Of a stretch of DNA of 24,750 bases, positions 3,176 to 24,749 are shown one piece after another. Made by a program: the position numbers and the translations under genes. The notes under the pieces were generated by a model. That model had not been told where the DNA came from and searched no databases. It saw only the letters and a program-made list of their open reading frames with translations. This stretch comes from a virus. Its lineage: Duplodnaviria; Caudoviricetes. The DNA lies in IMG/VR virus record IMGVR_UViG_3300020042_003181, positions 1-24,750 of that record; one strand, 5' to 3'. How positions within the stretch are numbered: position 1 is the first letter of the stretch; each line of letters begins with the position of its first letter.

Positions 3176-4036
3176 ATGACTATTACTAACACAACAACCC
3201 TCAACGACCTATTGCCAAGTATCGTTGCAGAAGCATTATTCGTGGCCAGCGAGAAGTCTATCATGCGTGGACTTGTTCGCAACTACACATTGTCAGCAGG
3301 CCAAGGTAAGACTGTTACAGTTCCTATCTATCCCAAGCAGACAGCGGCAGCATTGACTGAAGGAACTGCACCTAGTTTCACAGCAATCTCTACAGATGGT
3401 GCTACACTAACTGTATCAGAAGTTGGTCTAACTGCACAGATCAGTGACTTGGCTATTATGGCTTCTAGTTCTAATGTTATCAGTGACATTGGTCGTTTGT
3501 TTGGCGAAGCAATTGCTCGCAAGATGGACACAGACTTGTTGGCCTTGGCTAACAGTTTATCAGTAACAGTTGGTGGCGTAAGCACTGCCGCTACACCAGC
3601 ATTGATTTTCCAGGCCATCGCTAAACTACGCAGCCAAGGTTACGATACAGCCAATGATTGTGCTATCGTTCTACACCCTAATGTGGCCTATGATGTTGCC
3701 AGCGTTTTAACATCTACTTTTGCCGCTCCTGCGTCAATGGTTGGTAATGACGCATTGCGTAATGGCTTTATGGGTATGTTAGGTGGTGTTCCAGTGTATC
3801 AAAGCAGTTTAGTTGCTCAGTCAACAGCTTCTTCAAATGCAACTGGTGACTATGCTAACTTGATTATGCACCGTGATGCATTTGGTCTAGCAATGATGCA
3901 AGACATCAAGATTGAATCACAGCGCGAAGCAACCAAGCGTGGCTTTGACCTAGTTGGTTCAGCAATCTATGGTGTTGGTGAATTGTATGATGCTGCTGGC
4001 GTATGCGGAATATTTGATTCCAGCATTGAAGCATAA
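3176..4036 (+). CDS. Major capsid protein (HK97 fold)
   Basis: 286 aa, RBS AAGGAG. Motifs GKTVTVPIY, LTEGT, GEAIARKMDTDLL, IVLHP and GMLGGVPVYQSS are typical of phage major capsid proteins. Confidence 0.92.
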   Translation: MTITNTTTLNDLLPSIVAEALFVASEKSIMRGLVRNYTLSAGQGKTVTVPIYPKQTAAALTEGTAPSFTAISTDGATLTVSEVGLTAQISDLAIMASSSNVISDIGRLFGEAIARKMDTDLLALANSLSVTVGGVSTAATPALIFQAIAKLRSQGYDTANDCAIVLHPNVAYDVASVLTSTFAAPASMVGNDALRNGFMGMLGGVPVYQSSLVAQSTASSNATGDYANLIMHRDAFGLAMMQDIKIESQREATKRGFDLVGSAIYGVGELYDAAGVCGIFDSSIEA

Positions 4037-19137: not shown

Positions 19138-21765
19138 ATGGATCAATTCTATTTTGAAGAAGGTTATCTAGAAGCCAGTTACTTCACTGTGATCCGTGAG
19201 GCTGTGGCAGCATTGCCTGTGGCTGTAACATTCGCAGCTCAAGGTGATATTGCTGACGCCACTGGCTACTACATCCCTGATTACATAGCAGTTGGGTATA
19301 TCAGTGGTGGAGAAATTAAACAAGCAGCGGCTGCATTAAGCTCAACATTCACACAAACTGTGGCAATTAGTCACATTAAAGGTGTTGATTTATTTGCGTT
19401 CAGTAATGCGGCCATTGCTGTACAAGTTCAACGAATTCGCAGCACCAACATCACTGCGTCCTCAGTTTTTGATATTGCTACCAATGTTCAAAGAATTCAA
19501 CAAGGTGATTGTGATGTTAACAGCATATTCTCTGCCATTATTAATGGACTCCGCAGCCGTGATGTCAATTTACAGACGCAGGCTGCGTTTTCTTTTGCGG
19601 CAAGTGTAGACAAACTAAAATTAGCACAGGCTGCGTTGTCTGTGTCATGTTCTATCTCAGTCACAGCAAGAAAGATCCGTGATGCTCACCTAACTGGCAC
19701 TGGCGTTGCGGCGTTGACCTGTTCACCAACTGTTTTAGGTGTGTTGTCAGCACAGTTGCAGAGCACTGCTGTGATAACTCCTAATGTTAGCAGAACCACA
19801 TTGGCAGCTTCAGCATTAACTGCGGTCAGTGCAATTTTAATTAGTAGGAATACAAACACTGGTAGGCCACGTGATTTTACCATAACTGGCACACTGACTT
19901 TTGACACAAGCATTAAGAAATTTGGCACAGCCAGTTATTTTTACAATGGTCAAGGTTTTCAAGATACAAATTATCTAACATATGCCAGCACATCTGACTG
20001 GTCCAAAACCAAAACCATTGATTTTTGGTGGTATCATGAAACACAGTCTAGCAGTTATCTTGATCAAAATACTATTTTAAGTTGGTATACAGACAGCAAC
20101 AATTTTAAAGAAATTAAGCTCAATCCTAGTAATAGTGCGGGTCTAAGACAAATTGTTATTGATCAATACATTGCTGGAGTTAGCACAGAAAAATATAGAA
20201 AATTATTAGCTGTTAATTCTTATCCAAATAATAATTGGTATCATTTTAGAATTTTAGATGATGGATCAAGTCTAACTGTGTGGCTTGATGGAACCCGCAT
20301 TGCCAAAGATTCAGGAACCTACATAGCAGGATTAACGCTAAATGCACCTCTAAGATTAGGACGTTTTAGCAGTCAGCCTGTGAGATTTGATGAACTGCTG
20401 ATTACACAAGAAATCTTAACAGCCAGTTCTGTTGCAAGTTTTACGCCGCCAGGCAGATGGAGTTTTACAGATCAAACCAATGTGTTATTGTTGAGTCATT
20501 TTGATCAAACTTACATTGATGATGTTTCTATAACACAATTAGCATCATCAACATTATCTTCAGTCGCTACAATTTCAGCAGCCTTGAGTGGGCCAGTACG
20601 TGCAGCCAGTGCATTGGTTGTCAACAGTTCATTGCAGGCCACTATCACCAACATCAAGGGTGCTGACCTCGTAGCGTTTGCCAATACCACATTAACAGTC
20701 AATGCAGATAAGTTACGCATTGCTGCCGCCAGTCTTGGTGTGGTAAGCAGTATCAGCACCACAGTGATCAAAACTGCCAGTGGGGTATCAAACCTTGCAG
20801 TCAGCAGTAGTTTAACAGCAAATGTGGCTAGAACAAGACCATTTACTGCTGGTTTCACTGCCTTTGTGAGCCAACTTGCTGTTGTGGTAAGAACAGCTGG
20901 ATTTATTTTAGATGACAGCATGGTATTTTCACAGACTGTCACAGCAAACAGAAACGCTGGAGCCACAGCAGGATTATCATCTGACTTTGCTGTTGCGTCT
21001 ACATCTACACGTATCAAACAATTCAATGCCGCTGTCACTGTGGTCAGCACCTTGTCAGCTAACGGCACTGTTGCAAAAATATCATCAGCTGACTTTGCGG
21101 TTGCTTCAAACATCAGTGCCACAGCAGATAGACTGCGAGGCACTGCCTTAACAGTTGCAATAAATTTTCAACTTGCTGCCATTGGCAACAATCTTACAAA
21201 AATTGAATTCCTTGCGTTTATTGCAGGATCATTCACGGTTGTTGCAAACAAAATCAACAACGGCATACTGTCAGCCACATCAACTACCACTGCCAGCATC
21301 GCAGTTAAACGCATAAGAAATGTTGGTGCCGCTTTAAGCAACACCGCTGTTATCACCACAGCGGCTGACAGGATCACAGTAGCCACCGCCACACTACAAG
21401 CATTTGTATCACAGATCACAGTGGCAGTTGAAATATCTAGCATACAAGCACAGTTGTCAGTGGTATCAAGTCTCACAGCGATAAGTAGCAGAACACGAGC
21501 AACAAGTGCCACATTTGTGACCAGCAGTGTCTTAACTGTGGTGATTGGTAAAATCAGTGGCACTGGTGCTGGGTTGACATCAGCATTTGCTCTCGCAGGC
21601 AATGGTGGCAAACGAGTTGGTGCTCAGGCTACAATTGCGTCAGCCATGCAGTTTGTGGCTGCAGTGCGTGAAATAAGATTGGATAACATCGTGTATGTTA
21701 TTCCAGGTGAAACAAGAGTGTATGTTATCAAAGGCGAGACTCGCATACATACAATTAGACAATAA
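19138..21765 (+). CDS. Long Ala/Ser/Thr-repeat fibre protein with inserted LamG-like domain
   Basis: 875 aa. N-terminal YFEEGYLEASYF/YYIPDYIAVGY motifs, ~20-aa A/S/T repeats, central KKFGTAS...TIDFW...NNWYH...FDELLI. The native stop may be TAG 21784-21786 (see findings). Confidence 0.75.
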   Translation: MDQFYFEEGYLEASYFTVIREAVAALPVAVTFAAQGDIADATGYYIPDYIAVGYISGGEIKQAAAALSSTFTQTVAISHIKGVDLFAFSNAAIAVQVQRIRSTNITASSVFDIATNVQRIQQGDCDVNSIFSAIINGLRSRDVNLQTQAAFSFAASVDKLKLAQAALSVSCSISVTARKIRDAHLTGTGVAALTCSPTVLGVLSAQLQSTAVITPNVSRTTLAASALTAVSAILISRNTNTGRPRDFTITGTLTFDTSIKKFGTASYFYNGQGFQDTNYLTYASTSDWSKTKTIDFWWYHETQSSSYLDQNTILSWYTDSNNFKEIKLNPSNSAGLRQIVIDQYIAGVSTEKYRKLLAVNSYPNNNWYHFRILDDGSSLTVWLDGTRIAKDSGTYIAGLTLNAPLRLGRFSSQPVRFDELLITQEILTASSVASFTPPGRWSFTDQTNVLLLSHFDQTYIDDVSITQLASSTLSSVATISAALSGPVRAASALVVNSSLQATITNIKGADLVAFANTTLTVNADKLRIAAASLGVVSSISTTVIKTASGVSNLAVSSSLTANVARTRPFTAGFTAFVSQLAVVVRTAGFILDDSMVFSQTVTANRNAGATAGLSSDFAVASTSTRIKQFNAAVTVVSTLSANGTVAKISSADFAVASNISATADRLRGTALTVAINFQLAAIGNNLTKIEFLAFIAGSFTVVANKINNGILSATSTTTASIAVKRIRNVGAALSNTAVITTAADRITVATATLQAFVSQITVAVEISSIQAQLSVVSSLTAISSRTRATSATFVTSSVLTVVIGKISGTGAGLTSAFALAGNGGKRVGAQATIASAMQFVAAVREIRLDNIVYVIPGETRVYVIKGETRIHTIRQ

Positions 21766-21786
21766 ACTCGCATACATACAATTTAG
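21691..21786 (+). repeat. 27-bp-period tandem repeat spanning the stop codon
   Basis: Units encode VYVIPGETR / VYVIKGETR / IHTIRQ*TR / IHTI*. Exact 18-bp repeat ACTCGCATACATACAATT at 21739-21756 and 21766-21783. Confidence 0.85.
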
Positions 21787-21795
21787 GAGAAGCAT

Positions 21796-22122
21796 ATGGC
21801 TATTTCAGGATTTGAACAAAGCATACAGGGTCTAACCACACGCAAGGACACCAATGCACAATTGATTTACACATTTGACTGGAGTGATTGGTTGCCCACA
21901 GGTGACACTATCACTGCCAGCAATTATGTCATCACAGCTCGTGCCAATGATCCAGATCCTTTGGCCATTCACACGCAGGGACGTACAACAACCACTACCT
22001 ATGTGGAACTCAAAGAAGGGCAAGAGGGCAAGGTATATTCAGTGAGTGTGCAGATTACCACTGCCAATGGTTTGATTGACAGACGCACATTTAGAGTCAA
22101 AGTTGAAAGGCGTTCAGCATAA
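21796..22122 (+). CDS. Putative fibre-tail adaptor protein
   Basis: KDTNAQLIYTFDWSDWLPTGDTI...G..GKVY.V...ITTANG..D.R.F matches a common small phage family (KDP...LDY.FDW..WL). RBS AGGAG. Confidence 0.7.
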   Translation: MAISGFEQSIQGLTTRKDTNAQLIYTFDWSDWLPTGDTITASNYVITARANDPDPLAIHTQGRTTTTTYVELKEGQEGKVYSVSVQITTANGLIDRRTFRVKVERRSA

Positions 22123-22316
22123 TGGCTACCTTAAAAGAACTGGCCAAAGAGATTGAAATAATCAAAACCAACCATCTTTCTCACATGGCTGAAGACATTG
22201 ACCGTGTGGAAAGCAAGGTAGATAGGATTGACAATAGAATTTGGGCCATTCTAATTATTCTATGTGGTGCCACATTTGTGCCACTTTTAGTCAGCATGTT
22301 CAAAGACACCTTATAA
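22122..22316 (+). CDS. Holin-like / XhlA-like membrane protein
   Basis: 64 aa with an N-terminal coiled coil and one C-terminal hydrophobic helix (IWAILIILCGATFVPLLVSMF), at the end of the tail module. Confidence 0.55.
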   Translation: MATLKELAKEIEIIKTNHLSHMAEDIDRVESKVDRIDNRIWAILIILCGATFVPLLVSMFKDTL

Positions 22317-22323
22317 GTATGTG

Positions 22324-22812
22324 ATGGACGATGAAGTATTCAAACAAAAACTGTCAGAAGTAGCAGAATGGCGTGTGCCCAAACTCAAAGAATGGGAAGT
22401 TGAACAAGCCAAGCAAAAGGCTCGCGGCAAAGGCCGTGCTTCACTTGAGGACTTGTACGAGGAAGAACACAACAAAATATTCTTAGAAATATTCAATGGT
22501 GTGAATCCCACATATGCTCCAGAAATCACCAAAATCAAAATACAAGCAGTGACCTGCGGTGACTGTGGTGAATTATGTGAACAAGGCAGACGCACTGAAA
22601 TCAAGTTCTGCGCCGCTGGTAGAAATGAAATGCCCTATCGCAAAGAACGCTGTGTGGAATGCAATCTCTATCGTGATCCTGTGACTGGCAAATTCTCAGT
22701 GAGCATGGGCAGAGCTGCTCACGTGTTTGCCCAGCATGCCAAACTGCTGTGGTTAGAAAACAAATCTGCTAAAAAAATCACATTATCTCAAGATTCTACC
22801 TCAGACAAATAA
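22324..22812 (+). CDS. Hypothetical protein with Cys motifs (CGDC...C...CVEC), putative Zn-binding
   Basis: Long open frame. ATG 22324 (or GTG 22321) lies just after TATAAGTA (22312-22319) with no SD sequence. Confidence 0.75.
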   Translation: MDDEVFKQKLSEVAEWRVPKLKEWEVEQAKQKARGKGRASLEDLYEEEHNKIFLEIFNGVNPTYAPEITKIKIQAVTCGDCGELCEQGRRTEIKFCAAGRNEMPYRKERCVECNLYRDPVTGKFSVSMGRAAHVFAQHAKLLWLENKSAKKITLSQDSTSDK

Positions 22813-22816
22813 ATAC

Positions 22817-22938
22817 ATGAGCAGAGACAATTCCGTTATTCTACCTGGATATGGGCTTGCTGTCATACCAAAGAGTTTTTCTATTGCCATTGAGAAACCG
22901 CTCTGTTAGAAACGTCCGCCTTGGGCGTTTCGCCTTTT
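22817..22938 (+). ncRNA. Candidate small multi-stem RNA between a TAAATA motif and a terminator-like hairpin
   Basis: TAAATA at 22810-22815. Closing stem 22820-22826/22901-22907, hairpins 22846-22870 and 22875-22898, final hairpin 22909-22931 followed by GCCTTTT. Confidence 0.55.
22909..22938 (+). terminator. Terminator-like hairpin
   Basis: GAAACGTCC / GGGCGTTTC form a 9-bp stem (one G:U) with loop GCCTT, followed by GCCTTTTGT. Confidence 0.6.
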
Positions 22939-22987
22939 GTGATATCACTTTTATCACGTTATTTTTATCTCGTGATAAATATTATCA
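22939..22987 (+). promoter_or_regulatory. Cluster of TATCAC/GTGATA inverted repeats overlapping a GATAAATA promoter motif
   Basis: Palindrome GTGATATCAC 22939-22948, TTTATCACG/CGTGATAAA 22950-22979, TGATAA-ata-TTATCA 22973-22987, and TAAATA 22976-22981. Confidence 0.55.
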
Positions 22988-23007
22988 GCAGGCAAATACC
23001 AAGGCAC

Positions 23008-23256
23008 ATGATGGCAACTCAAAAATATCTCAATCAAGCACTACAGTTAGCAACCATGGCGTTGCAGTACGCTGAATCACTGACTCCTAGGCAAAGACGA
23101 ACATTCCGTAGATTTCTCAAAGATTCAAAACTAGGCCACGAAATAAACCAAAAACAAATCACTAGAGTTCTAAGGCACTGTATCAAGGCACATCATCATC
23201 TAACACCTAAGGTTAGCGGGCCAGTTTGTAATACCGCTGTGGAAAAACTAGGGTAA
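23008..23256 (+). CDS. Small basic hypothetical protein (82 aa) whose 3' end overlaps the structured RNA
   Basis: ATG ATG at 23008/23011 downstream of the TAAATA motif, reading MMATQKYLNQ...PRQRRTFRRFLK...VEKLG. No canonical SD. Confidence 0.5.
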   Translation: MMATQKYLNQALQLATMALQYAESLTPRQRRTFRRFLKDSKLGHEINQKQITRVLRHCIKAHHHLTPKVSGPVCNTAVEKLG

Positions 23257-23590
23257 TAACTAGACACGTGACATATTGAGGCACCCCCGTTGCTACGGCA
23301 ACTATCCTGAAAAATTGGAAGTGGGTCAGAGGTTGAAAGCAAAGATAACCAACGCATTGATATAGTATGAATGTTAGCATACGACAACACCAGCTATAAA
23401 CATCTAGACACTAGGAACGAGGTCTAGAATGCTTTAACAAGCATATCGTGGCAGGAAGGAAAAGCACAGAGTCCTTTAGCATATGGTGTATAAAAATTAC
23501 CTGCTTCCCAAGTCTTGGCTGAGATAACTCACAGAAAGAGGACGGAACCTGTAAAAAGGTTCCGTCTGACTAAACAATCTACAGAAAGTT
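23205..23590 (+). ncRNA. Candidate large structured non-coding RNA (~385 nt), family not recognised
   Basis: About ten consecutive stems, a cUACGg tetraloop, two possible pseudoknots and duplicated loop motifs, in a mostly ORF-free stretch. Boundaries are approximate. Confidence 0.7.
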
Positions 23591-23650
23591 AAAAGTCAAT
23601 TATTAAGTCATGTGTATGTGTCAAATGAGATCTAGATGTTTTTAGAAGAA

Positions 23651-23707
23651 AGCGACAGCGATTACGAGTGAGCGACAGCGAAATGAGTTGATGTCTGCAA
23701 GACATCA
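23651..23707 (+). repeat. Direct repeat AGCGACAGCGA x2 plus GCA-triloop hairpin; possible single-strand initiation/primosome site
   Basis: 11-bp repeats at 23651-23661 and 23671-23681, then TGATGTCT-GCA-AGACATCA at 23689-23707. Confidence 0.6.
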
Positions 23708-23723
23708 TTGTTAGTGAGACCAA

Positions 23724-23996
23724 ATGAAACAACACATACTTCTTAGTGAACACCAAGTGGCATCAGCAAGTGAGATCAAGCAGTTGTTGCTTGATGGAGA
23801 TATCACGGAGTTTGTTCCAAGAAATCAAAGACACAAGTTATTTTACAAAATTAAAATTGCTCCATATGCCAGCTACAAAGGCCCATGGGGTAATGAACTC
23901 ATATATTGGGATGGAGTCAATGCCGCTGTGGTCAAGTCAACTGAATCACGTAGCCACGAAATACGGCAACACATCAGTGACTGTCTTTTTGGATAA
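23724..23996 (+). CDS. Hypothetical protein (90 aa)
   Basis: Open frame with plausible composition ending just before the next promoter cassette. RBS is weak. Confidence 0.55.
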   Translation: MKQHILLSEHQVASASEIKQLLLDGDITEFVPRNQRHKLFYKIKIAPYASYKGPWGNELIYWDGVNAAVVKSTESRSHEIRQHISDCLFG

Positions 23997-24026: not shown

Positions 24027-24055
24027 TTGACATCTCACCAAATTGGTGCTATACT
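24027..24055 (+). promoter_or_regulatory. Sigma70 promoter, copy 1, with palindromic spacer
   Basis: TTGACA (24027-24032), 17-nt spacer, TGn-TATACT (24050-24055). The spacer holds CACCAA-A-TTGGTG (24036-24048). Confidence 0.9.
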
Positions 24056-24111
24056 AACACTATGAACTGCAAATGGCGTATTGACCGTTTGGCTCATATT
24101 GGAGATTTGAA

Positions 24112-24303
24112 ATGAATAACGAACAAGTAGCCCAAAAGATTTTGCGTTTTTATGGTGAGCAATTACTCAAACGCGAATGCGAAATGTTGGGAAAAGTATA
24201 TGACGCTGACAAGTTTAATGAAGTGTTTGAAACTATGTTAACCGCTGATGATGGTAAAAACATTGTTGCTAAAATAACCAAATTGGTAAATGAGTCAGCA
24301 TAA
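24112..24303 (+). CDS. Hypothetical protein (63 aa), probable early gene
   Basis: Has its own consensus promoter, RBS GGAG and a downstream terminator. Confidence 0.85.
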   Translation: MNNEQVAQKILRFYGEQLLKRECEMLGKVYDADKFNEVFETMLTADDGKNIVAKITKLVNESA

Positions 24304-24358: not shown

Positions 24359-24387
24359 TTGACATCTCACCAAATTGGTGCTATAAT
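24359..24387 (+). promoter_or_regulatory. Sigma70 promoter, copy 2 (perfect consensus) with palindromic spacer
   Basis: TTGACA (24359-24364), 17-nt spacer, TGn-TATAAT (24382-24387). CACCAA-A-TTGGTG at 24368-24380. Confidence 0.92.
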
Positions 24388-24449
24388 TATTACATGAACT
24401 GCAAAAAGCACATTGACTTTTTGGCTCATACTTGAACTGGAGATTTGAA

Positions 24450-24749
24450 ATGGTAACTTTTAAAGCTGGTGATTATGTTGAATACGGATACCGTCACGGT
24501 CCGTATATTGGAGAACGACGAGGTGGTATTGAACGACACTATGGCGTAATAATGCCATTTGGTGGCGGACCAATGCTATATATGTATAGTGGTATGGATT
24601 GCGAAATACACGCATTGCGTCGTTTGGCAAATGGACAATACATTTTGAATGTTGAAGTGAGAGATGATCCAAAACAACGACTTTGGGTGCGTAAAGTCCA
24701 AGCTGATCAATTCAAACAACAATACAAAAATTCAGTATTGAATGTTTGG
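24450..24749 (+). CDS. Hypothetical protein, partial (runs off the window end), absent from ORF track
   Basis: ATG 24450 after RBS GGAG. Reads MVTFKAGDYVEYGYRHGPYIGERRGG...KNSVLNVW, 100 codons with no stop. Confidence 0.85.
   Translation, partial: MVTFKAGDYVEYGYRHGPYIGERRGGIERHYGVIMPFGGGPMLYMYSGMDCEIHALRRLANGQYILNVEVRDDPKQRLWVRKVQADQFKQQYKNSVLNVW

Follow-up and report, generated by a model that had tools for sequence, protein, structure and literature searches.

The window, which is the whole 24,750-bp stretch of DNA analyzed here, is a single contig (G000) of a small tailed phage and was estimated to be 86% complete. Portal, scaffold, capsid, tail and fibre genes are all located on one strand. 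The contig starts (1-128) inside the large terminase gene; what is missing of the genome is located between 24750 and that start. Among isolates, the capsid protein (3176-4036) was found to be closest to those of the Pelagibacter phages HTVC202P, 111P, 026P, and 112P (48-49%); it also matches phage DSL-LC06 (36%), a phage of 29.8 kb. The cassette described below is located 3' of the last virion genes and 5' of two perfect or near-perfect sigma-70 promoters (24027 and 24359). Near-identical early promoter and leader blocks are found at 24027-24114 and 24359-24452, 332 nt apart; in each, the promoter spacer contains a palindrome, and the ribosome-binding leader is identical over 15 nt. An ORF of 163 aa with two cysteine pairs (22321-22812) is conserved directly 5' of the cassette in most small relatives, and a family search with this zinc-motif protein returned no family. 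The hexamer TAAATA, which we take to be the core of the T4 late promoter, occurs five times on the + strand of the window, every one at a gene boundary, and once on the - strand. The T4 late promoter has an 8-bp TATA box that is read by gp55 (PMC2988020, accessible part).

An earlier note on this DNA had described the region as an RNA-primed replication origin of ColE1-like logic under the control of a small RNA. When the sequence was checked again, all the parts listed in that note were found on the + strand where it had placed them. The features of the cassette are:

22810..22815, + strand, late-type promoter 1 (TAAATA), sharing bases with the stop of the 163-aa ORF; conserved in relatives
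22820..22907, + strand, small RNA of ~90 nt with a closing stem, internal hairpins and a conserved TTGCCA loop
22909..22938, + strand, intrinsic terminator-like hairpin (22909-22931) and T run; the stem covaries
22939..22979, no strand assigned, short 'operator-like' palindromes, kept in the closest relative only
22976..22981, + strand, late-type promoter 2 (TAAATA), from which the large RNA is predicted to be transcribed
22990..23190, + strand, leader with five AGGCA motifs (22990, 23002, 23089, 23173, 23186), enriched on the sense strand family-wide
23008..23256, + strand, basic ORF of 82 aa, strain-level and outside the conserved cassette; extends into the RNA
23200..23590, + strand, structured RNA of ~390 nt with 11 helices and three pseudoknot-type pairings; no Rfam match
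23200-05/23372-77, 23393-96/23477-80 and 23449-50/23465-66, + strand, the pseudoknot-type pairings, covarying
23531..23538, + strand, direct repeat copy 1
23541..23566, + strand, terminal hairpin between the repeats
23581..23588, + strand, direct repeat copy 2, in concerted variation with copy 1
23590..23650, no strand assigned, AT-rich spacer (73.8% AT), candidate unwinding element
23651..23681, + strand, two AGCGACAGCGA repeats with a GCGNNAGC DNA mini-hairpin in each
23689..23707, + strand, hairpin with a GNA triloop (GCA; a DNA-type loop)

What the earlier note had overlooked is that the cassette is common to jumbo phages and chromosomal islands.

The structured RNA, previously put at ~385 nt, is real, with a true span of about 23200-23590 that takes it into the last ~19 codons of the 82-aa ORF. 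The fold of 23250-23720 has a z of -2.67, and 0 of 100 shuffles were as stable. The structure named here, with 59 pairs in 11 helices, was found in 42 diverse copies with 95.1% of cells paired, and 35 of the 59 pairs change on both sides. None of 500 shuffles reached the pairing or the score, a control that is not independent because the structure was derived from overlapping sequence sets; slid controls gave 30-43%. Three crossing pairings covary, the longest being that of 23200-05 with the loop 23372-77. A fourth candidate pseudoknot (5' loop GCC with GGC at 23517-19) was rejected, being near-invariant, without covariation and not kept in islands. In three helices the ratios of G-U to A-C pairs on the + strand are 81:2, 111:3, and 56:0, and the + strand is therefore the folded strand. 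Across 60 sequences, 91 of 379 columns are invariant. The loops inside the element comprise 30 GNRA tetraloops versus four GNA triloops, whereas GNA triloops predominate downstream; as read from the sequence, this suggests RNA inside the element and single-stranded DNA after it.

The presence of a transcript over the region, as the earlier note supposed, is borne out by contigs from RNA runs. These cover 22820-23493 of the window, two of them without mismatch, and in a jumbo locus one contig bridges the upstream ORF and the RNA. Two contigs (22820-23159 and 22844-22950) overlap the small RNA. All were found with this stretch and speak for presence, not for strand, level or ends; library DNA is possible, and run X1 is probably DNA. 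The 3' end and the genes further downstream are thinly covered, to which we attach no weight. No Rfam family matched in the window (E up to 5), nor did any overlap the RNA of the 11 chromosomal loci searched (E up to 1), and a tRNA/tmRNA search found none. With three versions of the element as query, no DNA match was obtained in 50,697 phage records. A literature search, which had most subscription papers outside its reach, found no paper on the cassette. Four short cassette motifs were absent from six supplement files searched of PMC10690425, and cassette fragments may be among the 30-151-nt candidates of that study.

The last hairpin of the RNA has a copy of an 8-nt repeat on either side, 50 nt apart. 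The two copies co-vary, with 7.13 of 8 positions identical compared to 6.08 after shuffling (maximum 6.53 in 5000), as judged from 30 distinct pairs, one of them misparsed, from the 75 of 135 loci that the parser could read; relatedness inflates this result. Even diverged copies of the cassette with quite different repeat sequences are still matched within each locus. A third, complementary copy of the repeat was sought and rejected, as it was found in four of 75 loci and always more than 500 nt away. Pairing of the RNA copy with the template of copy 2 would fit such concerted repeats, and paired protein sites would fit equally. ColE1 has a similar hook, formed by a G stretch.

The spacer that follows (23590-23650) is 73.8% AT compared to 57.0% for the window, and 0.8% of all 61-nt segments are as high. 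The 11-mer AGCGACAGCGA is repeated at 23651 and 23671 and occurs nowhere else in the window. Downstream of the RNA, 88 of 125 loci have GCG-N1-2-AGC (0.076 expected) and 25 have its reverse, while GNA-triloop hairpins amount to 2.22 versus 0.126 per kb. The DNA stability of 23640-23715 as a whole is not unusual (z = -1.32). Loops of the GCGNNAGC and GNA types form stable DNA mini-hairpins, which occur at the G4 and ssiA priming sites (PMC13037366, accessible part).

A degenerate pattern for the 5' hairpin gave at least 120 matches in the viral collection, where ~440 stretches are estimated from 18 of its 64 parts. We obtained 135 distinct viral loci, a few of them perhaps chance matches: 75 jumbo-type, defined by adjoining gp46, gp47, gp55 or baseplate-hub genes, 15 small-phage-type, defined by adjoining G000-like genes, and 45 that were too short or unplaced. 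The RNA is present as a single copy in each of the eight genomes with a strong match. In relatives the late promoter, large RNA, AT-rich spacer, repeats and hairpin co-occur in that order, as the earlier note had expected. TAAATA was found within 300 nt upstream of the RNA in 13 of 15 small-type loci versus 5 of 75 jumbo-type loci. The jumbo gene order is gp55, gp47, gp46, a SegE-like GIY-YIG gene, the RNA and the baseplate hub, and the RNA has no late promoter of its own. The late sigma factor of the jumbo phages is closest to those of PA5oct and MIJ3 (48%). Two of the jumbo phages (G003 and G017) carry PolB and a DnaB-type helicase, and a late sigma is encoded at the jumbo loci.

Six small phages (G002, G009, G010, G011, G012, and G014) of 26-31 kb were rated complete. 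Each has one cassette, three have terminal repeats, and TAAATA occurs 10-16 times on the coding strand versus 1-5 times on the other. Among the ORFs scanned, none could be recognised as a polymerase, helicase, primase, SSB, initiator, integrase or sigma gene; the lack of an initiator or primase was a check proposed in the earlier note. The scan took in 31 ORFs of G002 and 106 of the 123 unassigned ORFs of the other five genomes, the other 17 were for the most part short antisense ORFs, ORFs that overlap the RNA, and two long tail genes. When replication and sigma genes were searched for directly, the small phages were likewise negative and the jumbo controls positive. As a counter-signal, a 107-aa ORF of a relative (L090) weakly matches a replication-initiation family (E = 0.0026). 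Many small ORFs of the small phages belong to no family, so a replication initiator or sigma could be present in unrecognised form. Since the G000 contig is 86% complete, its own lack of replication genes rests on its relatives. Terminase subunits, portal and capsid are encoded by the small phages (portal, scaffold and capsid in the window; terminase in relatives).

In GTDB genomes we found 48 matches, of which 31 pass a second marker, two of these being phage contigs in bins. TAAATA is located within 130 nt upstream in 28 of the remaining 29 marker-passing chromosomal loci (0.036 expected). Of the 17 matches that fail the marker, seven also have TAAATA, and several are members by eye. The cassette lies in integrase-bearing islands of 5-9 kb in Polynucleobacter, Rhodobacteraceae and others, and a tyrosine recombinase was present in nine of nine island loci scanned. 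A 6.7-kb low-GC island at secA (L297), with 29-bp end repeats, carries an integrase, a short recombinase, an HNH nuclease, a methylase and the cassette, with no Rep seen; two others (L298 and L300) are 5-9-kb units at porin genes. No Rep was found in the scanned islands, and L298 has an AAA ATPase. Restriction-modification and toxin-antitoxin genes are among the cargo. A catalytic-domain-only tyrosine recombinase of 190-220 aa usually adjoins the island cassette. In four islands (L255, L256, L270, and L302) a DUF6641 gene is directed away from the cassette, and in the Rhodobacteraceae islands DUF6626 comes after it; a literature search for these two names found no paper.

In a midpoint-rooted tree of 60 full-length RNA copies, from which island copies were left out, the copy in the window belongs to a clade (support 99/97) of six small-phage and two jumbo-type copies, including L003 and L114, that nests inside the jumbo RNA diversity. 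Two jumbo records, G017 (L127, L301) and G018 (L146, L304), and a Polynucleobacter genome, G020 (L270, L302), each have two distant cassettes of different types. The complete relative G001 (L091:9330-9930) has the two promoters, the small RNA and the AGGCA leader followed by an unrelated sequence of ~550 nt with a GCG-AGC end, possibly a third cassette type for another helper. In the cultured jumbo phage PA5oct (NC_071039, ~75.7-77.2 kb; L094:18900-20380), the slot of the cassette between gp46 and the baseplate hub is occupied by a nearly gene-free stretch of 1.4 kb that contains long hairpins and is a candidate origin of that phage. Neither the family profiles nor RF01718 matched in PA5oct or Atu_ph07. 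The stretch is not among the four PA5oct ncRNAs reported in the accessible part of PMC7318152.

Neither the small RNA nor the 82-aa ORF accompanies every cassette; both are optional. Taken alone, the small RNA has a fold z of -1.52 (12 of 200 shuffles as stable), yet it is conserved in the aligned relatives. It was found at full length at seven places in the 57 sources searched, all of them small-phage-type or short unplaced loci, and was absent from the jumbo phage G003 and the five islands searched; it is an optional module of one small-phage clade. In G001 it precedes the different sequence, without the large RNA. Its longest complement in the downstream transcript is 7-8 nt, and the pairing was not above shuffles in five of five loci (9 to 66 of 100 as strong), which speaks against the control by small RNA that had been proposed. 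The conserved 7-nt loop is complementary to the leader motif and also to a common Met-Ala start (27 of 516 ORFs of G003), and a role against helper mRNAs is a lead only. Further TAAATA-driven small RNAs with terminators and of unrelated sequence were seen at five loci (L093, L151, L159, L162, and L166), each with a GCCATT motif, mostly as TGCCATT.

The 'operator-like' palindromes at 22939-22979 are present, but they are missing in five of the six aligned relatives. In the 600 nt upstream of the RNA, the sense strand is 5.7-fold enriched in the AGGCA motif; 88 of 101 loci have at least two copies, the complement of the motif is rare, and its frequency falls once the RNA begins. At loci with TAAATA just upstream it is confined to the stretch after TAAATA (49 in 2,890 nt versus 12 in 7,160). 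When the 82-aa ORF was used as query, 35 loci on contigs of up to 332 kb were recovered, most of them matching the last 15-24 residues only. These loci align at the DNA level to 23195-23593 (70-84%), and the match is therefore to a nucleotide element and not to a protein. The ORF itself has only four near-identical homologues, a TilS match fell below the cut-off and was rejected, and unrelated short basic ORFs occupy its slot in a few other loci. Both promoters, the small RNA and the terminator are also present in four loci (L090, L101, L119, and L123) whose leader of 67-76 nt contains no ORF. Thus, the ORF is not a part of the cassette as previously claimed, and the ~600-nt length of the putative transcript is particular to this strain, the corresponding length in the four loci being about 450 nt.

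The small phages and the islands lack replication genes, have before the RNA a promoter that needs a foreign gp55-type sigma, and keep DNA signals in cis, and the simplest need common to them is to be copied during infection by a jumbo phage. The fold and strand of the RNA, the order and spread of the cassette, and the lack of recognisable replication and sigma genes in the complete relatives are directly established. From these data we consider it fairly probable that the cassette is a transcription-primed origin which G000 has in common with PA5oct-like jumbo phages and which is fired and replicated by such a helper. G000 is thereby likely to be a satellite with its own head, tail and terminase that would borrow late transcription and DNA copying. 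On co-infection, the gp55-type sigma of the helper would read the TAAATA at 22976. The transcript would fold, and behind the polymerase repeat copy 1, as RNA, would pair with copy 2 on the template strand, resulting in an R-loop held at the AT-rich spacer. The displaced + strand would then form the mini-hairpins and receive the helicase, primase and B-family polymerase of the helper, with the RNA end as primer. Chromosomal islands that bear the cassette would excise and amplify likewise. The SegE-like gene might supply a nick for clamp loading, a speculation given that the window has no such gene. The T4 replisome copies circles and plasmids that carry an R-loop within an unwinding element, the RNA acting as primer (PMC3016281, accessible part), so a borrowed origin would in principle be sufficient.

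Some observations count against an origin. The slot is filled by an unrelated sequence in G001, and the jumbo RNAs have no late promoter of their own. The GC-skew switch that the earlier note proposed to look for at an origin was not found at the cassette in the window, G001, G002 or G003. According to the accessible parts of the respective papers, T4 closes its R-loop origins late via UvsW (PMC3016281) and its late promoters require a loaded sliding clamp (PMC2988020); by analogy, both would be hurdles for an origin fired late. The observation made earlier is confirmed, and its interpretation as an origin is partly supported. We are evenly divided on the wider proposal that T4-superfamily jumbo phages start replication at a folded-RNA origin, Polynucleobacter-1 included, which two unrelated kinds of parasite captured and wired to the late sigma of the helper.

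A different reading, which we regard as unlikely, is that the RNA works in trans as a protein-binding or catalytic RNA of the jumbo phages, which small phages and defence islands have taken over to serve as a decoy or tool during infection only. Its ornate pseudoknotted fold with 91 of 379 columns invariant in 60 sequences, its transcription as indicated by the RNA-run contigs, the restriction-modification and toxin-antitoxin cargo of the islands, and a late promoter that would restrict expression to infection all agree with this. However, the mini-hairpins, AT-rich spacer and paired repeats accompany the RNA in cis in all three kinds of carrier, and a role in trans would leave the copying of genomes without replication genes unexplained. 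It is quite improbable that the jumbo phages use the cassette as a site for packaging or concatemer processing and that the parasites hijack it. The late promoter, the single copy and the need of the islands for a vehicle are consistent with such a site, and the polar AGGCA motifs upstream could be terminase sites, but the small phages have their own terminase subunits, portal and capsid, and in the three records with terminal repeats the genome ends lie away from the cassette.

We give little credence to a mobile or RNA-assisted nuclease unit made up of the RNA and the SegE-like GIY-YIG protein, or to the repeats marking a template jump of a reverse transcriptase. In 67 of 75 jumbo-type loci the SegE-like gene precedes the RNA, in three of 15 small-type loci it is located downstream, and the paired repeats are identical, but neither the window nor any of the nine island loci scanned has such a gene next to the RNA, the gene order is not fixed, and the test for a retron-like RNA gave an RVT_1 match in none of the five genomes searched (control positive in 3 of 14). 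Least credible of all is a ColE1-like replicon run by host RNA polymerase, RNase H, Pol I and PriA with the upstream small RNA as control: the parts are ordered as in ColE1 (PMC5043065, accessible part), the small-RNA loop is complementary to the leader, and the 23645-23690 motif finds its best local match on the ColE1 + strand at 1333-1364, just past the origin region, but this match is within shuffle range (128 of 200 as high), as is the small-RNA pairing, no + strand sigma-70 site precedes the RNA in 21700-23800, where TAAATA is found instead, the small RNA is missing from the searched jumbo phages and islands, and the island copy as query had no match in 72,556 plasmids.

If the cassette is an origin fired by a helper, there would be a widespread class of satellites without any replication protein, whose helper range would be set by an RNA together with a repeat pair through which this RNA is hooked to its own template. 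The place where replication starts in a large group of aquatic jumbo phages would then be named, and an RNA motif unexplained since 2010 would have a function. Such satellites would be missed by current screens because these seek a satellite-encoded primase or Rep, and the cassette would be a concrete answer to how satellite viruses without a replicase are copied. The islands are present in cultured Polynucleobacter and Rhodobacteraceae strains, which makes the claim directly testable. Should the origin reading prove wrong, the multi-pseudoknot RNA of 390 nt, found in bacterial chromosomes under a phage late promoter, still represents a new large RNA family.

As to known systems, the ColE1 RNA II/RNA I origin resembles the cassette in its folded transcript before the start point, its lack of an initiator protein and a priming-type signal downstream on the displaced strand (PMC5043065, accessible part); in the six complete relatives no initiator was recognised, small ORFs without annotation remaining. 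While the logic of the parts is thus ColE1-like, there is no sequence likeness (alignment scores are in the shuffle range, and the family profile is silent in ColE1), the promoter is of late type and not that of the host, there is neither an antisense RNA nor control by the small RNA, and the cassette is found in phages and islands, not in plasmids. Its occurrence in both jumbo phages and islands makes the machinery of a helper phage more likely than host Pol I, RNase H and PriA. The T4 origins oriF and oriG combine a promoter with an unwinding element, use a T4-type replisome and can work on a separate circle (PMC3016281, accessible part), and at the level of sequence the cassette has both a promoter motif and an AT-rich spacer. 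In contrast to the cassette with its conserved 390-nt pseudoknotted RNA and, in the parasites, a late-type promoter motif, the T4 origins have MotA-dependent middle promoters and no common local motifs, as described in the same part of that source.

MiniFlayer and MulchRoom are the nearest satellites. As far as PMC10690885 could be accessed, they encode capsid and packaging proteins of their own, lack an obvious replicase or primase, and have terminal repeats. The small phages also have capsid and packaging genes, and no replicase was found where the jumbo controls were positive. Unlike those two, they encode a full tail with tape measure, their presumed helper is a T4-superfamily jumbo phage, and a cis element common to the helper is identified, their helper dependence being a prediction. 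The accessible part of the same paper describes PICI, cf-PICI, P4, and PLE, which resemble our islands as small integrase islands with a predicted helper-phage trigger; these have their own replicases, whereas the islands here show none.

The closest likeness at the RNA level is to RF01718 (Polynucleobacter-1), which matches in G017, G018, and G020. It had no match in the window (G000; E up to 5) or in G009, the covariance-model bar of >37 bits not being reached, and the model spans only ~140 nt with a 5' domain different from that of the window RNA. The hits in the two jumbo records and the Polynucleobacter island lie in the slots of the cassette, after the SegE-like gene or after TAAATA beside DUF6641. 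In the three loci read, paired repeats, a hairpin and GCG-AGC-type motifs follow as in the cassette, and the 3' part of one of them (L302) weakly matches the cassette family profile (E = 2e-4). The table row and supplement hits of PMC2864571 state no function for Polynucleobacter-1. This orphan motif is the 5' end of a sister cassette.
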